DNA from: Cetorhinus maximus
Lineage: Eukaryota
Reading direction: 5' to 3'
Length of the DNA: 64,000 nucleotides
Assembly (NCBI RefSeq): GCF_964194155.1
Contig: NC_135891.1
Coordinates: 61,876,001 to 61,940,000 of the forward strand
A program made the translations under genes and the position numbers. Position 1 is the stretch's first letter; each line of letters opens with the position of its first letter. Shown in pieces: positions 1 to 59,076 of this stretch. The notes under the pieces were generated by a model. The model was not told the DNA's origin and did not search any database. It worked only from the letters and a program-made list of their open reading frames with translations.

Positions 1-509
1 TATTAATGGTCATGGGGAGCAAGCAGAGGGATGGGATTACACCAGTCAGTTCATGTGCAGGAAAGATGGCCTGAGTGGCATCTTTCTGTGCCGCGTCTGG
101 TTCCATGACATGTGTAAAATCTGAACCTCATTCCCTAAAACTGCAATGCTGACAATGTTATAAAGGCAAATGTATTTTAATACAGGCCTTGTGCTGCTCG
201 CTAAAGTGAGGGATGATCATGAGGGGGCAAAGGAACACTTTGACCCTTTTTGTATCCTGTGTCAGTGTCTCAGGTAAGGTGCAGGATGGGTGGGGCTGTA
301 TTGCTTGAGATTTTATTTCAGAATAAGATTCCTGGGAATTTTTGTAGGGTTGAATGGGAGAAGATTGCAGAGGTTTAGGTGAAAATAAGAAGGAAAAATT
401 CTCACATGTCTAAAAAGATGCTGTGCAGCACATTTTTAACATTCATTCTTCATATGTGCAATCAGCATTCTGGTCAATATTTATACCTCAACTACCGGCA
501 CAATCAATT

Positions 510-905: not shown

Positions 906-994
906 GATGTACTGGTGTCAGAAAGCCACTGATCTTTCTTCATTCAAGTTTAGCCAAGAAAAGGTAAAAATCTAGCTAAATGTAGGAACGAAAG

Positions 995-1430
995 AAAGAC
1001 TTACATTTATGTAGTTCCTTTCACAGCCATTCGATATATCAATGATTTATAGTCAATTGAGTACTTTTGAAGCCTAGTCCCTGTTGCCATGCAGCAAATA
1101 TGCGAACAGCAAACTCCCACATACAGCAAGTGATAATGATCAGGTAATCACTTTTTGTCATGTTGATTTAGGGATAAATATTGGTTAGAATGCTGGGGAT
1201 AACTCCCCTGCTCTTCTTTGAAATAGTGCCATGGGGTTTTTTACATGGAGACAGATGGGGACTCATTTTAACATCTCATCCAAACAACAGCACCTCAATG
1301 AGTGCAGTGCCCCTCGGTGCTGGAGTGTCAGCTTTGATTTTTGTTCTCGTGCCCTGGAGCAGGACATGAACCTGGAACCTTGTGACTTAGGTACAAGAGA
1401 GTTACGCACTGAGTTAAGGCTGACACTTTG
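995..1430 (-). mobile_element. Deu-domain SINE
   Basis: Reverse complement of the same family: ctcttctttgaaatagtgccatggg, tttaacatctcatcc, B-box-like tgaacc. Confidence 0.8.
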
Positions 1431-1599
1431 GCGGTGGTGTGTTAGGGAATCAGCCACCTATTTGACATCACATCCAATTTTCTTTACCATTGATGTCAAT
1501 CGAAAACAGTAATTGGGTGCGGTTTTGCACTACTGGTGAAGGCCAAATTCAATCAACAAGGCCATCACACAAGGACCAATACATGAAATAGGCTACCAA

Positions 1600-2019
1600 G
1601 GAGTCTGTACAAGTGAAGAATGTTTATATGTTAAGAAGCTGATAAAACATGGCAAAGGTTTGCACAATAAATGGGAAGACACTGAGAGATGTAGAGAAAA
1701 TGAGGGACTTTGGAGTGAATGTCCACAGATCCCTGAAGGTAGCAAGAAAGGTTGATAAGGTGGTTAAGAAGGCACATGGAATCCTTTCATTTTTTAGCCA
1801 AAACATATGATATAAGAGCAAGGAGGTTATGCTGGAACTATATAAAACATTAGTTAGGCCACCAGTTGAGTACAATCACCTCATTCCAGAAAGGATATCA
1901 TTGCATTAGAGAGGGTACAGAGATTTGCGATGTTACTACGACTGGAAAATTGCAGCTATGAGGAAAGAATGGATAGGCTGGGGTTGTTCTCCTTGGAACA
2001 GAGGAAGCTGAGGAAAGAT
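1600..2019 (+). mobile_element. CR1 (HER1-like) LINE 3' part, left segment, interrupted by the Penelope insertion
   Basis: Decayed ORF2 C-terminal motifs (RDFGVNVHRSLK, YKTLVRP, DRLGLFSLEQRKLR). Sequence resumes at 5412. Confidence 0.85.
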
Positions 2020-2114
2020 TTAAGCAAAAAACTGTGGATGCTGGAAATCTAAAACAAAAACAAAAATACCTGGAAAAACTCAGCAGGTCTGGCAGCATCT
2101 GCGGATAGGAGCAC

Positions 2115-2154
2115 AGTTAATGTTTCGAGTCCAAAAGACCCTTCAACAGAACTA
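2115..2154 (-). ncRNA. minimal hammerhead ribozyme motif of the Penelope terminal region (variant core CUGUUGA)
   Basis: Reverse complement reads agtt-CTGTTGA-a-gggtc-ttttg-gactc-GAAA-catt-aact. Confidence 0.65.
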
Positions 2155-2535
2155 AGTAAAAATAGAAGAGAGATGAAATATAAGCTGGTATAAGTGGGGG
2201 GGTGGTGGGGGGGGGGGCGGTGGTGACAAGAAGAGCTGGATAGAGGGCCAGTGATAGGTAGAGATAAACAATAGGTGTCACAGACAAAAAGTCAAAAGGA
2301 ATCTAAAGGAATGTGCTAATTGTAGAAAGCAGGACGAGCAAAGTGCAGATAGCCCTAGTGGGGGTGGGGTGGGGGGAAGGGATCGAAATAGGCTAAAAGG
2401 TAGAGATAAAACAATGGATGGAAATACACTTAAAAATAATGGAAGTAGGTGGGAAAAGAAAAATCTATATAAATTATTAGAAAAAACAAAAAGGAGGGGG
2501 AAAATCGGAAAGGGGGTGGGGATGGAGGAGAGAGT

Positions 2536-3756
2536 TCATGATCTTAAATTGTTGAACTCAATATTCAGTCCGGAAGGCTGTAAAGTGCCTAGTCGGAAGA
2601 TAAGGTGCTGTTCCTCCAGTTTGCTTTGAGCTTCACTGGAACAATGCAGCAAGCCAAGGACAGACATGTGGGCATGAGAGCAGGGTGGAGTGCTGAAATG
2701 GCAAGCGACAGGGAGGTCTGGGTAATGCTTGCGGACAGACCGAAGGTGTTCTGCAAAGTGGTCACCCAGTCTGCGTTTGGTCTCTCCAATGTAGAGGAAA
2801 CCGCATGGGGAGCAACAAATGAAGTAGACTAAGTTGAGGGAAGTGTAAGTGAAAAACTGCTTCACTTGAAAGGAGTGTTTGGGCCCTTGGACGGTGAAGA
2901 GAGGGGAAGTAAGGGGCCAGGTGTAGCACCTTCTGCGGTTGCATGGGAAGGGGCCGTGGGAAGGGGTTGAGGTGTAGGGGGTGATGGAGGAGTGGACCAG
3001 TGTGTCCCGGAGGGAACAATCCCTGCGGAATGCCACCGGGGGGGTGAAGGGAAGATGTGTTTGGTGGTGGCATCATGCTGGAGTTGGCGGAAATGGCGGA
3101 GGATGATCCTTTGAATGCGGAGGCTGGTGGGGTGATAAGTGAGGACAAGGGGGACCCTATCATGTTTCAGGGAGGGAGAAGAAGGTGTGAGGGCGGATGC
3201 GTGGGAGATGAGCCGGACACGGTTGAGGGCCCTGTCAACCACCGTGGGTGGAAAACCTCGGTTAAGGAAGAAGGAGGACATGTCAGAGGAACTGTTTTTG
3301 AAAGTGGCATCATCAGAACAGATGCGACGGAGGTGAAGGAATTGAGAGAATGGGATGGAGTCCTTACAGGAAGCAGGGTGTGAGGAGCTGTAGTTGTGGT
3401 AGCTGTGGGAGTCAGTAGGCTTGTAATGGATATTGGTGGACAGTCTATCACCAGAAATTGAGACAGAGAGGTCAAGGAAGGGAAGGGAAGTGTCAGAGAT
3501 GGACCATGTGACAATGATGGAGGGGTAGAAATTGGAAGCAAAATTAATAAATTTTTCCAGGTCCAGACTAGAGCATGAAGCAGTACCGAAGTAATCATCG
3601 ATGTACCGGAGAAAGAGTTGTGGGAGGGGGCCGGAGTAGGACTGGAACAAGGAATGTTCCACATACCCAATAAAGAGACAGGCATAGCTGAGGCCCATGC
3701 AGGTACCCATAGCCACACCTTTTATTTGGAGGAAGTGAGAGGAGTTTAAGGAGAAA
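2536..3756 (-). pseudogene. Penelope RT C-terminal half, Cys linker and GIY-YIG endonuclease (left arm, one frameshift)
   Basis: GVAMG, RYIDD, FLDL, HYKPTDSHSY, CNRRRC, LVY..C..C...YIGETKRRL..H...H, LQPSGLNIEF in ORFs 2862-3716 and 2536-3036. Confidence 0.95.
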
Positions 3757-4940
3757 AGGTGTGGCTATGGGTACCCGCATGGGCCCCAGCTATGCCTGTC
3801 TCTTTATGGGGTATGTGGAACATTCCTTGTTCCAGTCCTACTCCGGCCCTCTCCCACAACTCTTTCTCCATTACATCGATGATTACTTCGGTACTGCTTC
3901 ATGCTCTCGTCTGGACCTGGAAAAATTTATTAATTTTGCTTCCAATTTCCACCCCTCCATCATTTTCACATGGTCCATCTCTGACACTTCCCTTCCATTC
4001 CTTGACCTCTCTGTCTCAATTTCTGGTGATAGACTGTCCACCAATATTCATTACAAGCTTACCGACTCCCACAGCTACCTCGACTACAGCTCCTCACACC
4101 CCGCTTCCTGTAAGGACTCCATCCCATTCTCTCAGTTCCTTCGCCTCCGTCGCATCTGTTCTGATGATGCCACTTTCAAAAACAGTTCCTCTGACATGTC
4201 CTCCTTCTTCCTTGACCGAGGTTTTCCACCCACAGTGGTTGACAGGGCCCTCAACCGGGTCCGGCCCATCTCCCGCGCATCCGCTCTCACACCTTCTTCT
4301 CCCTCCCAGAAACATGATAAGGTCCCCCTTGTCCTCACTTATCACCCCACCAGCCTCCACATTCAAAGGATCATCCTCCGCCATTTCCGCCAACTCCAGC
4401 ATGATGCCACCACCAAACACATCTTCCCTTCACAAACCCGGCGGCATTCCGCAGGGATCGTTCCCTCCGGGACACCCTGGTCCACTCCTCCATCACCCCT
4501 ACACCTCAACCCCCTCCCACGGCCCCTTCCCATGCAACCGCAGAAGGTGCTACACCTGGCCCTTTACTTCCCCTCTCCTCACCGTCCAAGGGCCCAAACA
4601 TTCCTTTCAAGTGAAGCAGCATTTCACTTGCACTTCCCTCAACTTAGTCTACTGCATTCGTTGCTCCCAATGCGGTTTCCTCTACATTGGAGAGACCAAA
4701 CGCAGACTGGGTGACCACTTTGCAGAACACCTTCGGTCTGTCCGCAAGCATTACCCAGACCTCCCTGTCGCTTGCCATTTCAGCACTCCACCCTGCTCTC
4801 ATGCCCACATGTCCATCCTTGGCTTGCTGCATTGTTCCAGTGAAGCTCAACGCAAACTGGAGGAACAGCACCTTATCTTCCGACTAGGCACTTTACAGCC
4901 TTCCGGGCTGAATATTAAGTTCAACAATTTTAGGTCATGA
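3754..4940 (+). pseudogene. Penelope RT C-terminal half and GIY-YIG endonuclease (right arm, two frameshifts)
   Basis: GVAMGTRMGPSYA, YIDD, VYCIRCSQCGFLYIGETKRRL, LQPSGLN in ORFs 3761-4714 and 3759-4940. Confidence 0.95.
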
Positions 4941-5313
4941 ACTCTCTCCTCCATCTCCACCCCCTTTCCGATTTTCCCCCTCCTTTTTGTTTTTTCCAAT
5001 AATTTATATAGATTTTTCTTTTTCCACCTACTTCCATTATTTTTAAGTGTATTTCCATCCATTGTTTTATCTCTACCTTTTAACTTATTTGATCCCTTCC
5101 CCCCACCCCACCCCCACTCGGTCCTGCTTTCTACCCTTAATTAACACATTCCTTTAGATAATATTACCACCTTCAACACCTCTTTGACTTTTTGTCTGTG
5201 ACACCTTTTGGTTATCTCCATCTATCACTGGCCCTCTATCCAGCTCTTCTTGTCCCACCCACCCCACCCCCCCTTATACCAGCTTATATTTCATCTCTCT
5301 TCTATTTTTACTT

Positions 5314-5352
5314 AGTTCTGTTGAAGGGTCATTCGGACTCGAAACGTTAACT
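5314..5352 (+). ncRNA. minimal hammerhead ribozyme motif (variant core CUGUUGA)
   Basis: agtt-CTGTTGA-a-gggtc-attcg-gactc-GAAA-cgtt-aact: stem I agtt/aact, stem II gggtc/gactc, palindromic ACGT stem III. Penelope elements are known to carry such motifs. Confidence 0.7.
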
Positions 5353-5411
5353 GTGCTCCTGTCTGCAGATGCTGCCAGACCTGCTGAGTTTTTCCAGGTA
5401 TTTTTGTTTTT

Positions 5412-5790
5412 GCTGAGGAAAGATCTGATTGAGATGTACAAAATTGTGTGGGGCCTGGATAGAGTGGATGGGAAGAGCCTATTTAGTTTAGCAGAGAGGT
5501 CAGTGTATAGGGGCATAGGTTTAAAGTGATTGGTAGAAAGATTAGAGGGGTATGAGGAAAATCTTTTTCACCCAGAGGGTTGTTGGGGTCTAGGACTGAA
5601 AGGGTAATAGAAGCAGAAACTCATTGAAAAGGTGTGTGAATGTGTACCTCAAGTGCCGTAACCTGCAGGGCTATGGACCAAATGCTGGAAAGTGGGATTA
5701 AGCTGGTTGGCTTGTTTTCAACTGATGCAGACACGATGGGCCAAGTGGCCCCTTTCTATGCTGTAAACCTTATATGATTCTATGATGTTG
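5412..5790 (+). mobile_element. CR1 (HER1-like) LINE 3' end, right segment
   Basis: Continues LRKDLIEMYKI, then FFTQRVV, and ends in the tail gggccaagtggcccctttctatgctgtaa...gattctatgat. Confidence 0.85.
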
Positions 5791-5799
5791 TGATTCCAT

Positions 5800-5916
5800 G
5801 GACAGAATTTTACCCCAGTGGCGTTTTACGATCCTGCCGAAGTGAATGGAATGTAGAATGGCTCGGCGCATTTTACGGCCCCCTCCTGAACAGGATGGGG
5901 CCATAAAGTTCTGGCC
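5800..5916. mobile_element. Harbinger-type MITE, 117 bp
   Basis: Terminal inverted repeats (TIRs) GGACAGAATTTTA / TAAAGTTCTGGCC with CAT on both sides. Core aagtgaatgga is shared with 48584-48710. Confidence 0.8.
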
Positions 5917-6714
5917 CATGAATAGATTGACTAGAGACAGAGGGGTAAGAGAGATAGAGTAGAGAGTTGGTGTCCCCTGGGACTGGCCCCAAAGGTAATA
6001 AAAAGAGCATTTCTACTCTTGTTCTTGGTGGAGTGAATGATTAGTAAGGCGTGACTAGTGACATAACCATGGTTACCTCAAGCTTGCTCACCTTAGGGGA
6101 TTGAGGAAGAATTTCCCAGAGTTTTTCCTGAAATTACGAGCAGCATCAAACTGACCTTCTTGAGTCCTTAGAGTCCTGGGGGGGTTAAATTAATCGACAG
6201 ATCAGCACAAAATGGGGTTGTAGCAAATCGACAGTCAATTATTCACAGCATGCGACCTCCTTTCAAACAAAGCTCACACTGTCGGAGTCTCATTTCCTAG
6301 CCTCTCTGTTGCTTGTACTCAGAATGAAATTAAAAATCATGGTAAGGTTTTCGAGCTCAGTGGGATAAACTAGTGCTGATTCACAGGCTGCTGATTCACT
6401 ACAAGCCTGTTTCACTCAGCTGTCATAAGCCAAGTTCACCCCCTGCCCAAGTCTTTGTGTTGATGGATATCAGCCAGCCTATGCTCATCCTATCAGTGTG
6501 ATCTTGTGCATCACTCTTCCCAATTATCAGGTGACTCCTTGGGGAATTATAGCTGCTCCAAGTGGTGTTTCCAGCAGCTAATCCACCTGTCTCTGAGAAC
6601 CTGGAGTCAATTCAGATTACCTGCCTTTGACTCCTTTAAAATACCACTTACTCAGCACTCATCAAACAGAGCAGCTTTACAGGCTCAGGCATGTCCACAG
6701 GCATGGAAGACGGT

Positions 6715-7090
6715 TGCATACCCCAGGGATTTCTATATGGTGAGGAAGCCAGAGCCACTTGATCAATAGGGAGACCAAAGCTCAACTTCAAGGGTGCTTG
6801 CAAGCATGACATGTAGGTCCCAAACATTAATTATTGCATCTGGGAGTCGCTAGCTGACAACAGAGGAAAATGGCGACATTATCAGCATGATGACCAGTGG
6901 CTACAGCAGCTTGGCAACAAGTGCCAATGCCGAAAACAACAACCCACAAGGACACCTGGTAACTTCATGTGTGGCACTTGTGGCAGAACCTGCCTTTCGA
7001 GGATTGGCCTCTTCCATCAACAAAGGTATGCCATATGAGGCACTCCGTCTAAAATGAATTGTTTACTGTGTGCCTATGAAAGGATGCTAA
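6715..7090 (+). mobile_element. RTE-clade LINE 3' fragment
   Basis: Translates to LYGE...GRPKL.FK..CK.DM...WESLADNRGKWR...FMCGTCGRTCLSRIGL (C-terminal zinc finger). Confidence 0.8.
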
Positions 7091-8354
7091 CAACACAGAA
7101 AATACACAAGCATATTCCATCTCTTGGCACCACGTTCTGTAACATCTTACAGCTTCCTCCATTGACGTGGAACTGCTGCCGCAGGCATTCTACACTCAGA
7201 GTGGGCTGGCTTTCGTACTTTGTGAAAGACACCAGCGAGTGACTTAACTGGCCTTGAAAACGTCAGCCCAAAAGTGACCACAAAGGACTTCACATCTTTC
7301 TACCCTTTAGTCAAGGTTGCTGAATTTGTACTAAATTAGATAAGATGTGCTGGCCAATTAATTCAGAGCAGATCTGGCTTAACATTGCATATTTCCGTGT
7401 GTATGAGATGAATCATGCTGAATGCTGTCACTTGCTCATCAGATCACATTATACAAGTGTCATCATTGCAAAGACTCATTCACTGTTCAAGGTCGATGGG
7501 AACAAATGATTTGCACAAACTAGAGCTGGCTCCTTCGCCATAATATCACAGGGCTGCACGTGTGGGCCAACACAAAGCATCCTGAGATTTGCCAAAACCC
7601 AATGCTTGACAGAATGTTGCTCTACATACATTCAACCAGCCCACTGTAATTCAGCTAGACACGGGCACATTGTATTGCCTGCTTTATGAAAGGTTTCTCC
7701 TGCAGGAAGTCACCAGAGGACTCTTCAGCTCAATTCATAAGTGGCACCGGATCTTTACACATGGACAAACTCATTGACGATATTCATGAGCTAGTTTCTC
7801 ATTCTTCTTGCCATGCTCCAGAGAAGGTGGCTGTATTGTTCTGCTTGTTCAGAAGTTCATTCTCAGTCTTCTGTTTAGTACACTAACTGCTCGTATGGTT
7901 TTCTGGGGTAGTAAAATCCTTTCTCTCCTCTACATCCATCATCATCGTCACTGGCTAGGACATTTCATTGACTGCTACAAGGTAATTGTTCTCTTCTTAG
8001 CTGTACTATTGCAACAACCCTCAAGCTTATCCAGATGCTCTACAATGTTGTAAATACCCAAAGGATTCAAAATTTTAAAGATGTATCCTTCTGCTTATCA
8101 AGTTACCATGTAAACCACACTATCAAATTATAGCTGCAACTATTCCCACAGCCTCAGAATCATTGGATCTGGAGATGGGAAGAGGGAGGGAGTTGATTTT
8201 TAAGATGAGAAAGACCAAGTAATGGTTTCCCATAAGTCATGCCGTACTTAACATCAGGGTCTCCCTGAAATTATATAAACAGATATCCCTCCCAACAGTC
8301 AGAAAGGTTGACTCTCTGTGGCACTGAAAATTAGTCCGGGAATGAATGTCAGAT

Positions 8355-32344: not shown

Positions 32345-32388
32345 ACCCTAACCCTAACCCTAACCCTGACTCTAACCCTGACCCTAAC
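32345..32388. repeat. interstitial telomeric repeat (CCCTAA)n, about 7 units with variants
   Basis: accctaaccctaaccctaaccctgactctaaccctgaccctaac. Confidence 0.9.
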
Positions 32389-32960: not shown

Positions 32961-33062
32961 TTCGGAAGAAGAGTCATATTGGACTTGAAACATTAACTCT
33001 GTTTCTCTCTCCACAGATTTTGCCATACCTGCTGAGTTTTCCCAGAACTTTCTGCTTTTATT
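32961..33062 (+). mobile_element. short hammerhead-headed Penelope derivative
   Basis: cggaagaagagtc-atattg-gacttgaaacattaactct followed by the Penelope tail cctgctgagttttccc. Confidence 0.8.
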
Positions 33063-48009: not shown

Positions 48010-48144
48010 TCAAAATCAAATTACTGCGGATGTTGCAAATCTGAAATAAAACCATAAAATGCTGGAAATACTCAGCAGGTCAAGCACCATCTGTGGAGAG
48101 AGAAACAGAGTTAATGTTTCAGTTCAACGACATTTCATCAAAAT
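48010..48144 (-). mobile_element. short hammerhead-headed Penelope derivative
   Basis: Reverse complement ttgatgaaatgtc...gaaacattaactctg followed by the full Penelope tail. Confidence 0.8.
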
Positions 48145-52612: not shown

Positions 52613-53743
52613 ACTGATCCAACAATGTACACCAACTCTAACTTTAAAAGACCTCTAGAGTGACCATTTTCCCATTGCCTGCTTCACACAATTGGTTCAG
52701 TTCTAAATTTGTGATTAGTTTGTACTGAAGGGCACGCTCACTGAGAACTGGGGTTTTGTCTGAACGAACCCATTTCACTTGAGGGCCTTTACAATTGAAC
52801 AAAAGAGCCTTTCAGAGCCTTAGCCTGGATTAAATTCAATGTTATGTTTTGTGATTCCCATTGGCCACTGTACCCAGAAAGTGAGGTGTGAAAAGTGCCA
52901 GATGCAACATTTTAGAGCCAAAGATAACATGGCATAGATGTTGTAGTGTTCTGTTACTGGACTAGCAATCCAGCAGAACATGAGTTGCAATGCCCCCTTG
53001 GCAGTTTCAGAATTTGAACTTAGTTCTAAAAGACAAAAACCATAAAAGGGACCATGAAACTGTTAGATTGTTGTAAAAGTCCAACTACTTCAAAAATGTT
53101 CTTTTTTAAGGAATGAAACCTGCCGTCCTTACCTGATTTAGCCTAGTTATGAATTCAGTCCTAAAAACACATGTTTGATTGTTACCTGACTTCTGAAGCA
53201 GCCTGGCAACCAACTCAACCCTAGCAACCAGGACCGGGTAAGAAATTCCAGCCTTGCCAATAGCACCAACATCCTGAGAATAGTAATTAAAAAAAGAAGT
53301 GGCCAAGGATGAATTGAAAGATCTAGGGCTAAAAGAAAAAAATAATATATCCAACCCAATGTGGAGCATTGACAAAAAGGCTTGAGTGCACTGAAATGCA
53401 CCCTCAAACTTTAAAAAGGCTCTGATCAGGCCACACCTCGAGTAACGTGTCCTTTTGGGTCGCTGAAATGCACATAAAATATTCAAGATCTGGAGGTGTA
53501 GGAACTGAAGGTATAGCCTCTCCTGCTGTCTATCATGGGTCATGTGATGTTCTTGGAGGCTCCAACCAATAAGGCCTAAGCGCGAGCAATCCGGGGGGGT
53601 AGGGCTTCCTGAGGAGGTTCCTGATCATGCATGTAGCACTTGAAAAGCTCCCTGTAATAAGTTTTATCTGTTGCTCGTTGAAACCTGTCCACTCCGTCAA
53701 GTCATTACAAGAGGCAATGGGGAAACGAGACAATGGGGAATCT

Positions 53744-53841
53744 GAAACAAAAACAGAAAATGCTGGAAAAACTCAGCAGGTCTAACAGCATCTGTGGTGA
53801 GAAAAAGAGAGTTAACGTTTCGAGTCCATATGGCTCTTCTT
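53744..53841 (-). mobile_element. short hammerhead-headed Penelope derivative with 13-bp TSD
   Basis: caatggggaatct (53731-53743) and caatgggaaatct (53842-53854). Reverse complement tgaaga-a-gagcc-atatg-gactc-gaaa-cgttaactc. Confidence 0.85.
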
Positions 53842-56907: not shown

Positions 56908-57780
56908 TAAAAACAGAAAATGCTGGAAAAATTTAGCAGGTATGGCAGCATCTGTGGAGAGAGAAACAGAGTTAATGTGTCAAGTTCGTATGTCTCTTCA
57001 GAGCTGAAGTGAGGTAGAAATGTGATGGATTTTATATTGTTGAAGAGAGGGGGTGGAGCAGATGGAGCAAATAGTAAGTTAGGGATAGGTGGGAGCTCAG
57101 GAGAGATTTAACAAAGAATTCATGGACATAAGACAAAGGGATTGGTAATGATAGTGTTAAAGACTGAGGCAGGTGCTAATAGTGGTATAAAGGTTAGATA
57201 GCAGAATGTGTTGATAGCACAACAAGGGTCAGCGCTCTCTGAAAACATAAGTTACAGACTGGCCCTGTGGGGCTAGGGGGTTGGGAAAAAAATCACAAGG
57301 GAGGACAGAGTTCATGATCTGAAGTTGTTGAACTCAATGTTAAGTCCAGAAGGCTGCAAAGTACCCAATTGGAAGATGAGGTGCTGGTCCTCCAGTTTGC
57401 GTTGGGCTTCACTAGAGCATTGTATAAGGCAGAGGACAGAAACGTGGGCATGGGAACAGGATGGTGAATTGAAATGGCAAGATTCAGGAAGGTCAGGAAT
57501 ATTTTCGCTCAGTCTGCAAGCATGACACCTTTGTCAAATTTCTCCTTGGCTCCCACCTATACCTGGCCTTCAATTTTGCTCCACCTGCTCCATCTCCTCT
57601 CCTCAACAGTATGAAAACCACCACATTTCTACCTTTCTTCAGCTCTGAAGAAGAGCCATACGGACTGGAAACATTAATTATGCTTCTCTCTCCTCAGATG
57701 CTGCCAGAGCTGCTGAGATTTTCCAGCATTTTCTGTTTTTATTTCAGATTTCCAGCATCTATAATATTTTGCTTTTATTC
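56908..57780. mobile_element. older Penelope inverted pair (56908-~57497 minus, with GIY-YIG C-terminus; ~57521-57780 plus)
   Basis: Minus strand reads CHFNSP...EAQRKLEDQHLIFQLGTLQPSGLNIEFNNFRS. Hammerhead and tail at both outer ends. Confidence 0.85.
57641..57680 (+). ncRNA. minimal hammerhead motif with canonical CUGAAGA core
   Basis: agct-CTGAAGA-a-gagcc-atacg-gactg-GAAA-catt-aatt; stems decayed. Confidence 0.6.
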
Positions 57781-57783
57781 CAC

Positions 57784-57862
57784 GTTTGATATCAGAGTGT
57801 TTGATATCAGAGTGTTTGATATCAGAGTGTTTGATATCAGAGTGTTTGATATCAGAGTGTTT
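57784..57862. repeat. perfect 15-bp tandem repeat GTTTGATATCAGAGT, 5 units plus GTTT
   Basis: Seen directly. Confidence 0.97.
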
Positions 57863-59076
57863 AATAGGAGAGGGTGTTGGAGGTGCTCAGTGGGTCTGGC
57901 GGCATCTGTGGAGAGAGAAACAGCTAGTGTTGCAGATCTGAAACAACGACAATCCTTAACATTGTAATCCAACAAGACATTGATAGATTCTCCTCTTTTC
58001 TTTAAATTAAAACTTTTGAAAGCACAAGAGCAAGCTATCAATAAAACTTAGTTGAAAAGAAGCAAAATTATATATTTTATTTCATCTTCTATGTTTCACA
58101 TTATAGCACAACCAACCATTAACAGATCCCATATTACCCTTTCTTTAAATAACATTTATTTGTTTCTTTAACATTTATGAATAATTATAAAGCAAAAGAA
58201 AATATTGGCTTTCCATGTTCTCATTACAACACAAGGTATCCCTCTTCCAATGCATGTAATAATTTCATGGAGCAAGCATCTATCTTCATAAAACAGTCTG
58301 ACAATTGGTGACTTGCATCCACCCATTTGATTTTGGAAATCTCTCTTCTTTCCAACATTTCCTTTACACTAGCAAGGTCAATCCTCAACTTTTTTCAGTG
58401 ACGCTCTTTGTTATCCACATAGCATTCAATGGGCAAACTTTTCTCAGATTGCACCTTGTATAGGACTTCCTTCAGAATGTTAGATAAGTATACCCCATAT
58501 CTATTGCTTCTACTAGCACCAGTGTTTCAGCAGCTAAGGTGCTTTTAACTACCCTTTGTATTTTCTTGCCTTCCCAGGCAATGGAAAACATTTATTGTTC
58601 TTCCTCACCAAGGATATGATAAACCCTGCTTTGCAACAATATCCATCCGGAAGATTGGCATGTGAAGCATCGCTAAAAATGAATAACTTCATATCTTCTG
58701 GATCACCCAAGGCTGGAAACTTGAGTGTGCATTTCTCTGAATTTAATTTTTTTAATGTTTTATTTGCTCTCAACCTCTTTGACTGTAACATGTTTCATCA
58801 TACTACTCAGTTTCAATACATAAAAACTGGCATCAGGTCTGATGAGTGCACAACCAGTTCAACTGTCCAGCCAAACTTCTGAATTGGTCTGCTTATTCCT
58901 TGGATACAAGACTCTCTCTTTGTGAGGGCTGGCCCAATTCATTGCGGTGAGATTGACATTTTCTCAGTAAGATTGTTGATTCAAGGTCTCTCCCAACTTA
59001 TTGCCTAACCTTCGTGCCTAACCCTATATATTTAAATGCCCCAGAAGCCTGACTTCCAATCTTAAACTCCTTCTTA

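Follow-up and report, generated by a model that had tools for sequence, protein, structure and literature searches.

The window analysed here (64,000 nt of Cetorhinus maximus, GCF_964194155.1, NC_135891.1, 61,876,001-61,940,000, forward strand) carries a Penelope-like element (PLE) inserted as two head-to-head arms within a single TSD, inside a split LINE fragment which we take, from the preliminary description and from its motifs, to be of the CR1 type (Table 1). The TSD is exact and reads GCTGAGGAAAGAT; beside the left-arm tail its start, ATCTT, is also the family read-through sequence after two differing bases. The arms match at 1570 and mismatch at 69 of 1639 aligned positions (95.8% identity), differ also by small 3'-UTR indels and duplicate 1.66 kb of sequence. 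The left arm holds the C-terminal half of RT, the linker, the GIY-YIG endonuclease and the 3' UTR/pLTR, and the right arm is nested in it, the left arm being longer at both its 5' end (30 nt) and its 3' end (36 nt). Past 3756 the family sequence continues TTGTTCAGTG, unlike the locus. One TSD encloses both arms and the CR1 flanks are contiguous in five other copies among the fetched loci (65-72% identity), which confirms the earlier view that the inverted arms are one real landing of the element.

Table 1. Features of the 3.4-kb insertion and its flanks (positions in the window)
Feature	Position	Strand	Basis
Host CR1-type LINE fragment, upstream half	1600..2019	+	contiguous with downstream half in 5 other copies
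Left TSD copy, 13 bp	2007..2019	+	exact; longest repeat at insertion ends
Left arm, 5'-truncated Penelope-like copy, ends at tailed site A	2020..3756	-	L033 positions 1487-3239; ORFs
3' tail, left arm only, 36 nt	2020..2055	-	tail as in PMC11167929, PMC8557442, PMC3846280
Extra 5' sequence of left arm, 30 nt (apparent loop)	3724..3753	-	arm alignment
AAA microhomology, 3 nt, common to 5' ends of both arms	3754..3756	.	family comparison
Right arm, 5'-truncated copy, ends at tail-less site B in GTTTTT repeats	3754..5411	+	L033 positions 1520-3206
Linker with CX4CXXC and GIY-YIG endonuclease, two Cys between motifs	4494..4940	+	Pfam GIY-YIG E 0.0015; translation
Putative hammerhead-like motif in pLTR, variant core CTGTTGA ... 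GAAAC	5314..5352	+	motif count
Right TSD copy, 13 bp	5412..5424	+	exact; longest repeat at insertion ends
Host CR1-type LINE fragment, downstream half	5412..5760	+	contiguous with upstream half in 5 other copies

It is highly improbable that this layout arose from two independent insertions at one site or from an assembly artefact. The family does run to thousands of copies (932 to 5417 first-look candidates per query, of which 40 were scored), and no public contig bridged the centre among the matches listed, where repeat-derived short contigs dominated. Nevertheless, such an origin is at odds with the single TSD, the lack of target sequence between the arms, their shared rare variants and 4% divergence, as well as with the fact that 18 of the 77 copies selected by their 3' end are arranged alike. 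A fold-back artefact of assembly in particular is unlikely, because the arms carry evenly spread private variants (29 in one, 27 in the other) and the TSD copies have distinct flanks. At the left outer junction, 70-nt contigs from two of four runs cover 1976-2045 with three other letters and have only 26 letters on one side, against a bridging threshold of 31. No empty allele of this junction appeared among the public contigs listed, a result that is uninformative either way since repeat-derived contigs dominate.

The assignment of the element to a Penelope-like family is upheld, and its predicted domains fit an EN+ PLE. In the long natural copy L033, which served as reference, Pfam gave weak matches to RVT_1 (E 0.00018) and GIY-YIG (E 0.0019) that fall short of the curated cut-offs, as does the GIY-YIG match in the window arm; Pfam returned no RT family for the truncated RT frames of the window, and a PDB sequence search with the L033 RT gave no match. 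L033 also has the DKG motif (D-K-G) and the linker CNRRRCNTC, a CX4CXXC motif whose last Cys is altered in both window arms, while the right-arm translation shows, by eye, VYCIRCSQCGFLYIG and, after it, conserved His residues. In L033, L261, L264 and L266 the 3' end is present a second time upstream, as a pLTR or partial tandem. The family has two sites for its 3' ends, separated by about 35 nt, which fits an optional, one-sided tail of 30-40 nt. The pLTR motif of Table 1 resembles the hammerhead core consensus; its variant core CTGTTGA occurs in 134 of 160 motif matches. Rfam gave no hammerhead match at E up to 1, only microRNA models that match a hairpin and score below their gathering thresholds. 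Judged by the linker motif, the clade appears to be Neptune-like: the CX2-5CxxC RT-EN linker is typical of Neptune and absent in Penelope/Poseidon (PMC8557442). Nematis, too, possesses a linker motif. Both arms lack one C of a C-run (~3040 and ~4437) that is kept in 23 of 28 other copies, so that RT and EN lie in different frames; the C may have been missing already in the template, or slippage may have recurred.

To place the locus within its family, we mapped 146 stretches (145 loci and the window) on L033. The surveyed loci are the top matches to the window's subfamily rather than a random sample, and later fetches were enriched for head-to-head units. The 77 copies picked by 3' end only include 22 head-to-head units, 18 of them with a TSD. 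Altogether 102 head-to-head junctions were collected. In 72 of them the TSD measures 11-18 bp (mode 14), and the remaining 30, without a TSD of at least 11 bp, were dropped. The TSD-bracketed insertions follow a strict rule: 66 of 72 join an arm ending at the tailed site A to an arm ending at the tail-less site B, six join A to an internal end, and none joins A to A or B to B. Among the 30 junctions without TSD there are three tail/tail and three tail-less/tail-less pairs. Site B is a stand-alone 3' end of the family and not just a feature of palindromes: solo tail-less copies have a TSD of at least 10 bp in 17 of 29 cases, and solo tailed copies in 17 of 32. All six TSD-bracketed pairs with a non-standard end retain the A arm, and this small number of pairs hints that site A is primed first. 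No clear 5' truncation hotspots were seen by eye among 223 5' ends. Nine of the insertions are short (~100-260 bp), TSD-flanked palindromes of pLTR ends with different centres, all of the tail plus tail-less type (the second units of L044, L072, L083, L091, L092, L233, L252, L280 and L281), and most of them begin near the hammerhead-like motif.

The layout of the insertion is already published, and the locus adds another member. For EN+ PLEs, head-to-head copies with a TSD and a one-sided tail have been described (PMC3846280, PMC8557442). Pen2a of Adineta vaga (PMC3846280; scheme in PMC8557442) likewise has head-to-head arms with one TSD round the unit, a 30-40-nt tail at one end only and partial tandems, but the arms at the present locus are long (1.7 kb) and extend into RT. 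These papers propose self-priming or EN-mediated resolution, and their available sections do not quantify tail pairing or staggering; the transposition cycle of PLEs is called undefined (PMC8557442). Our literature search, which left subscription journals largely outside, turned up no proposal of double priming as the origin of PLE palindromes.

The preliminary description attributed the locus to fold-back synthesis, whereby the tailed cDNA would have snapped back on AAA/TTT and been recopied into the right arm. The window taken alone fits this geometry, and thereby counts against separate priming of the two arms: the arms are nested and each other's closest relatives, and they meet at 3 nt of microhomology without an insert. 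Moreover, self-priming has been proposed for PLE palindromes (PMC3846280), and cDNA snap-back has been reported for R2, where the 5' junction likewise carries an inverted copy of element sequence (PMC11371274). In the family itself, two TSD-bearing loci, L234 and L256, contain inverted pieces that are nested and end at arbitrary points. However, taking the signs seen at the locus as evidence of fold-back is not supported. The 35-nt 3' overhang of the left arm is the published PLE tail, bounded by a start site common to the family, and microhomology is equally common in pairs that fold-back could not have made. A fold-back copy would also need to terminate at the family's second start site, as the tail-less arm does in those 66 of 72 insertions. 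R2-type snap-back gives a nested copy; unlike what is seen in the window family, it cannot yield staggered arms and predicts no fixed second-site end.

The nesting of one arm in the other holds at the locus and fails as a rule. Leaving aside nine short pairs, 17 complex ones and L034 (diverged alignment), the 66 A+B insertions provide 39 simple pairs, of which 15 are nested and 24 staggered. In the staggered pairs the B arm reaches 3-2155 nt further 5' while only the A arm has the tail, so neither arm can be a copy of the other, since each holds sequence missing from its partner. Across the simple pairs the median 5' offset is 675 nt and the 5' ends of the two arms do not correlate (rho -0.20, p 0.23); an initial impression of correlated arm lengths did not hold up. 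The 5' ends of the window arms lie 33 nt apart, and the window, at the short end of a broad distribution, is one of two simple pairs out of 39 with an offset of at most 50 nt, against 1.33 expected by permutation, so that about 3% of pairs would be this symmetric by chance. A set of 53 other pairs, which omits L255 and L261 (tandem pLTR in an arm), contains three near-symmetric ones with 5' ends within 5 nt (L235, L274 and L281), where 0.27 would be expected (p 0.002). This excess favours fold-back and speaks against separate priming of the arms. Each of the three carries inserts repeating nearby sequence, and they may reflect either both cDNAs running off at one RNA end or true snap-back. Their junctions lie at ~4000 (L235), ~3750 (L274) and ~3870-4000 (L281), and in L281 a unit of ~47 nt is repeated three times, a pattern that iterative template jumps or polymerase-theta-like joining could leave.

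Microhomology at the central junctions is enriched across the sampled head-to-head insertions, as the preliminary description had anticipated: among insert-free junctions, 10 of 18 share at least 2 nt, compared with 19% under the null (p 0.0007). Yet six of these ten belong to staggered pairs, and since it is found there too, the microhomology marks end joining rather than self-priming. Inserted or unaligned bases are present at 21 of 39 junctions. At the window, three A's are common to both arms, not the four reported earlier, and under the null 9.5% of blunt joins show an overlap of 3 nt or more. The suggestion that the short A-run paired as a hairpin primer fares poorly, given that a 3-bp stem with a 30-nt loop has +3.7 kcal/mol and a pairing probability of ~0.0005 in free DNA, although an enzyme could hold the unstable AAA/TTT stem together. 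Taken together, fold-back is unlikely both as the origin of this locus and as a general route in the family, and it is not needed to explain the window, which is an ordinary, though unusually symmetric, example of its class.

Long palindromes are known to rearrange at their centres. It is conceivable that all pairs began as fold-back palindromes cut by the endonuclease at the tail-less site, and that later central deletions shifted the offsets either way; this could produce the staggering and so counts against separate priming. The inserted or unaligned bases at the junctions would agree with such a history, and Craig et al. suggested the tail to be a result of EN-mediated resolution (PMC8557442). 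We regard it as quite improbable all the same. More diverged arms show no larger offsets (rho 0.12, p 0.55, n=27). Of the three youngest pairs, two have a stagger of about 1.4-1.5 kb already, while the 30-nt loop of the window survived 4% divergence. In addition, solo tail-less copies with a TSD and the locus L055 require RNA priming away from the tail anyway.

The relatedness of the arms bears on the number of templates. The window arms are mutual nearest neighbours (non-CpG distance 0.033, with 0 of 80 other segments closer) and agree at 47 of 48 polymorphic sites, which upholds the earlier claim that they come from one template. The same seems to apply widely, as the discordance of 16 of 19 testable pairs, staggered ones included, lies within the lowest tenth of cross-locus values; the staggered L236, for example, has 30 shared rare variants and 46 of 47 concordant sites. 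Some pairs look as if made from two templates (20 of 43 sites discordant in L032, 9 of 24 in L204 and 8 of 31 in L272; also L255). These discordant pairs count against a common template and would suit a scheme in which both nicks are primed by two ribonucleoproteins with different RNAs, the usual similarity of the arms coming from one dominant source or from gene conversion. Inverted two-template insertions have been described for L1 (PMC11702581), and no sibling copy has more than three of the window's ten shared variants. We consider two ribonucleoproteins improbable, because they are hard to reconcile with the low discordance of most pairs, with the even spread of private variants in the window (7-12 per 240 nt, no homogenised tract) and with strict tail/tail-less pairing, which is easier on one RNA end. 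Arm-to-arm gene conversion may nevertheless be an alternative source of arm kinship: neither the variants found in sibling copies nor the synonymous share of shared and private variants (12/46 vs 75/199, p 0.17) decides on it, and the CpG test of conversion is void because the rarity filter removes CpG changes. Copying of both arms from one RNA, with strand displacement, would best account for the pairing and the kinship together.

In our opinion the arms were probably copied as separate cDNAs, for which the two strands of the staggered cut served as primers, and were then joined head to head. The cut would be staggered by 13 bp at the locus (~14 bp in the family), and each cut strand would prime one cDNA, one from the end of the RNA tail (site A) and its partner from the second start site, ~35 nt further upstream (site B). 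The template would probably be one RNA molecule, or else a pair of transcripts from a single source copy. Synthesis of each cDNA would stop independently, and the cDNA ends would be joined by microhomology or filler-assisted end joining, each cDNA being then filled in; at the window they would have stopped 33 nt apart by chance and joined on AAA. This double priming is made likely by the A+B pairing, the solo B copies with TSD, the staggered arms from a common template and the uncorrelated 5' ends. It is likewise favoured by the match of the outer ends to the target, where mean microhomology is 1.36 nt at one end (n=44) and 1.04 nt at the other (n=48), compared with a null of 0.37; 0 of 2000 null draws reached either value. 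L055 is also telling: it carries a TSD, and its inverted arm, with GAT in common with the target, derives from a non-overlapping stretch inside the element; because this arm is internally primed and non-overlapping, the second nick can prime on RNA. The A+A and B+B pairs among the junctions without TSD count against double priming.

Further support comes from Poseidon of Anolis carolinensis (PAc), for which both target strands are cut and extended in vitro (PMC11167929). As in the window family, RT starts at two adjacent sites bounding the tail, and a dimer is predicted (PMC11167929). PAc belongs to a different clade, whereas the window family has the CX4CXXC linker. In its available parts the PAc study does not address inverted insertions and reports no strand difference in the start site (PMC11167929). 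The strict A/B pairing is thus left unexplained by the in vitro assay, because equal start sites were seen on both strands.

There is also a clear resemblance to L1 twin priming, in which the second target end likewise primes on the RNA upstream of the first, the TSD is kept and microhomology joins the cDNA ends (PMC11702581). However, L1 cDNAs abut with gaps or overlaps of 1-10 bp (PMC11702581), whereas arms of the window family duplicate up to kilobases, and, unlike in L1, the second start is mostly fixed at 35 nt from the first. Twin priming of the L1 type was accordingly rejected for the locus, where the arms do not abut and the long duplication is present. The family does include non-duplicating cases, L055 with a TSD and L247 without one. 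In L247 (1647-4693) the end of the inverted arm and the start of the main arm coincide at reference position 836; this is twin-priming geometry, and no TSD was found.

Extending double target priming from this family to PLEs at large is a more tentative step, which we propose as possible: PLEs might routinely integrate in this way on one RNA end, with a dimer that places one strand of the cut at the tail and its counterpart 35 nt upstream. If so, strand displacement on the same RNA would be followed by host end joining of the cDNA ends, and this duplicating form of twin priming would account at once for the one-sided tail and the inverted copies. The counts given here make the origin of both features directly testable in the existing in vitro system. 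They also have a bearing on genome instability, since about a quarter of the sampled copies (18/77) create an inverted repeat on landing.

Several other arrangements are worth pointing out. L037 contains a 6.1-kb palindrome (997-7104) of two nearly full-length tailed arms with 15 shared rare variants; no TSD was found for it, and its centre has a 4-nt palindromic overlap, ACGT. Within the window, a related family has left another, older head-to-head insertion at 56908-57778; it is staggered, its minus-strand tail-less arm extending further 5' than the tailed arm. No TSD was found there by eye, and a 15-nt tandem repeat follows at 57784-57866. Isolated old remnants of pLTR ends from related Penelope-like families, with 75-78% identity to L033, are located at 32968-33062, 48012-48119 and 53736-53839, and a short interstitial telomere-like repeat (ACCCTA, 7.3 copies) occupies 32345-32388.
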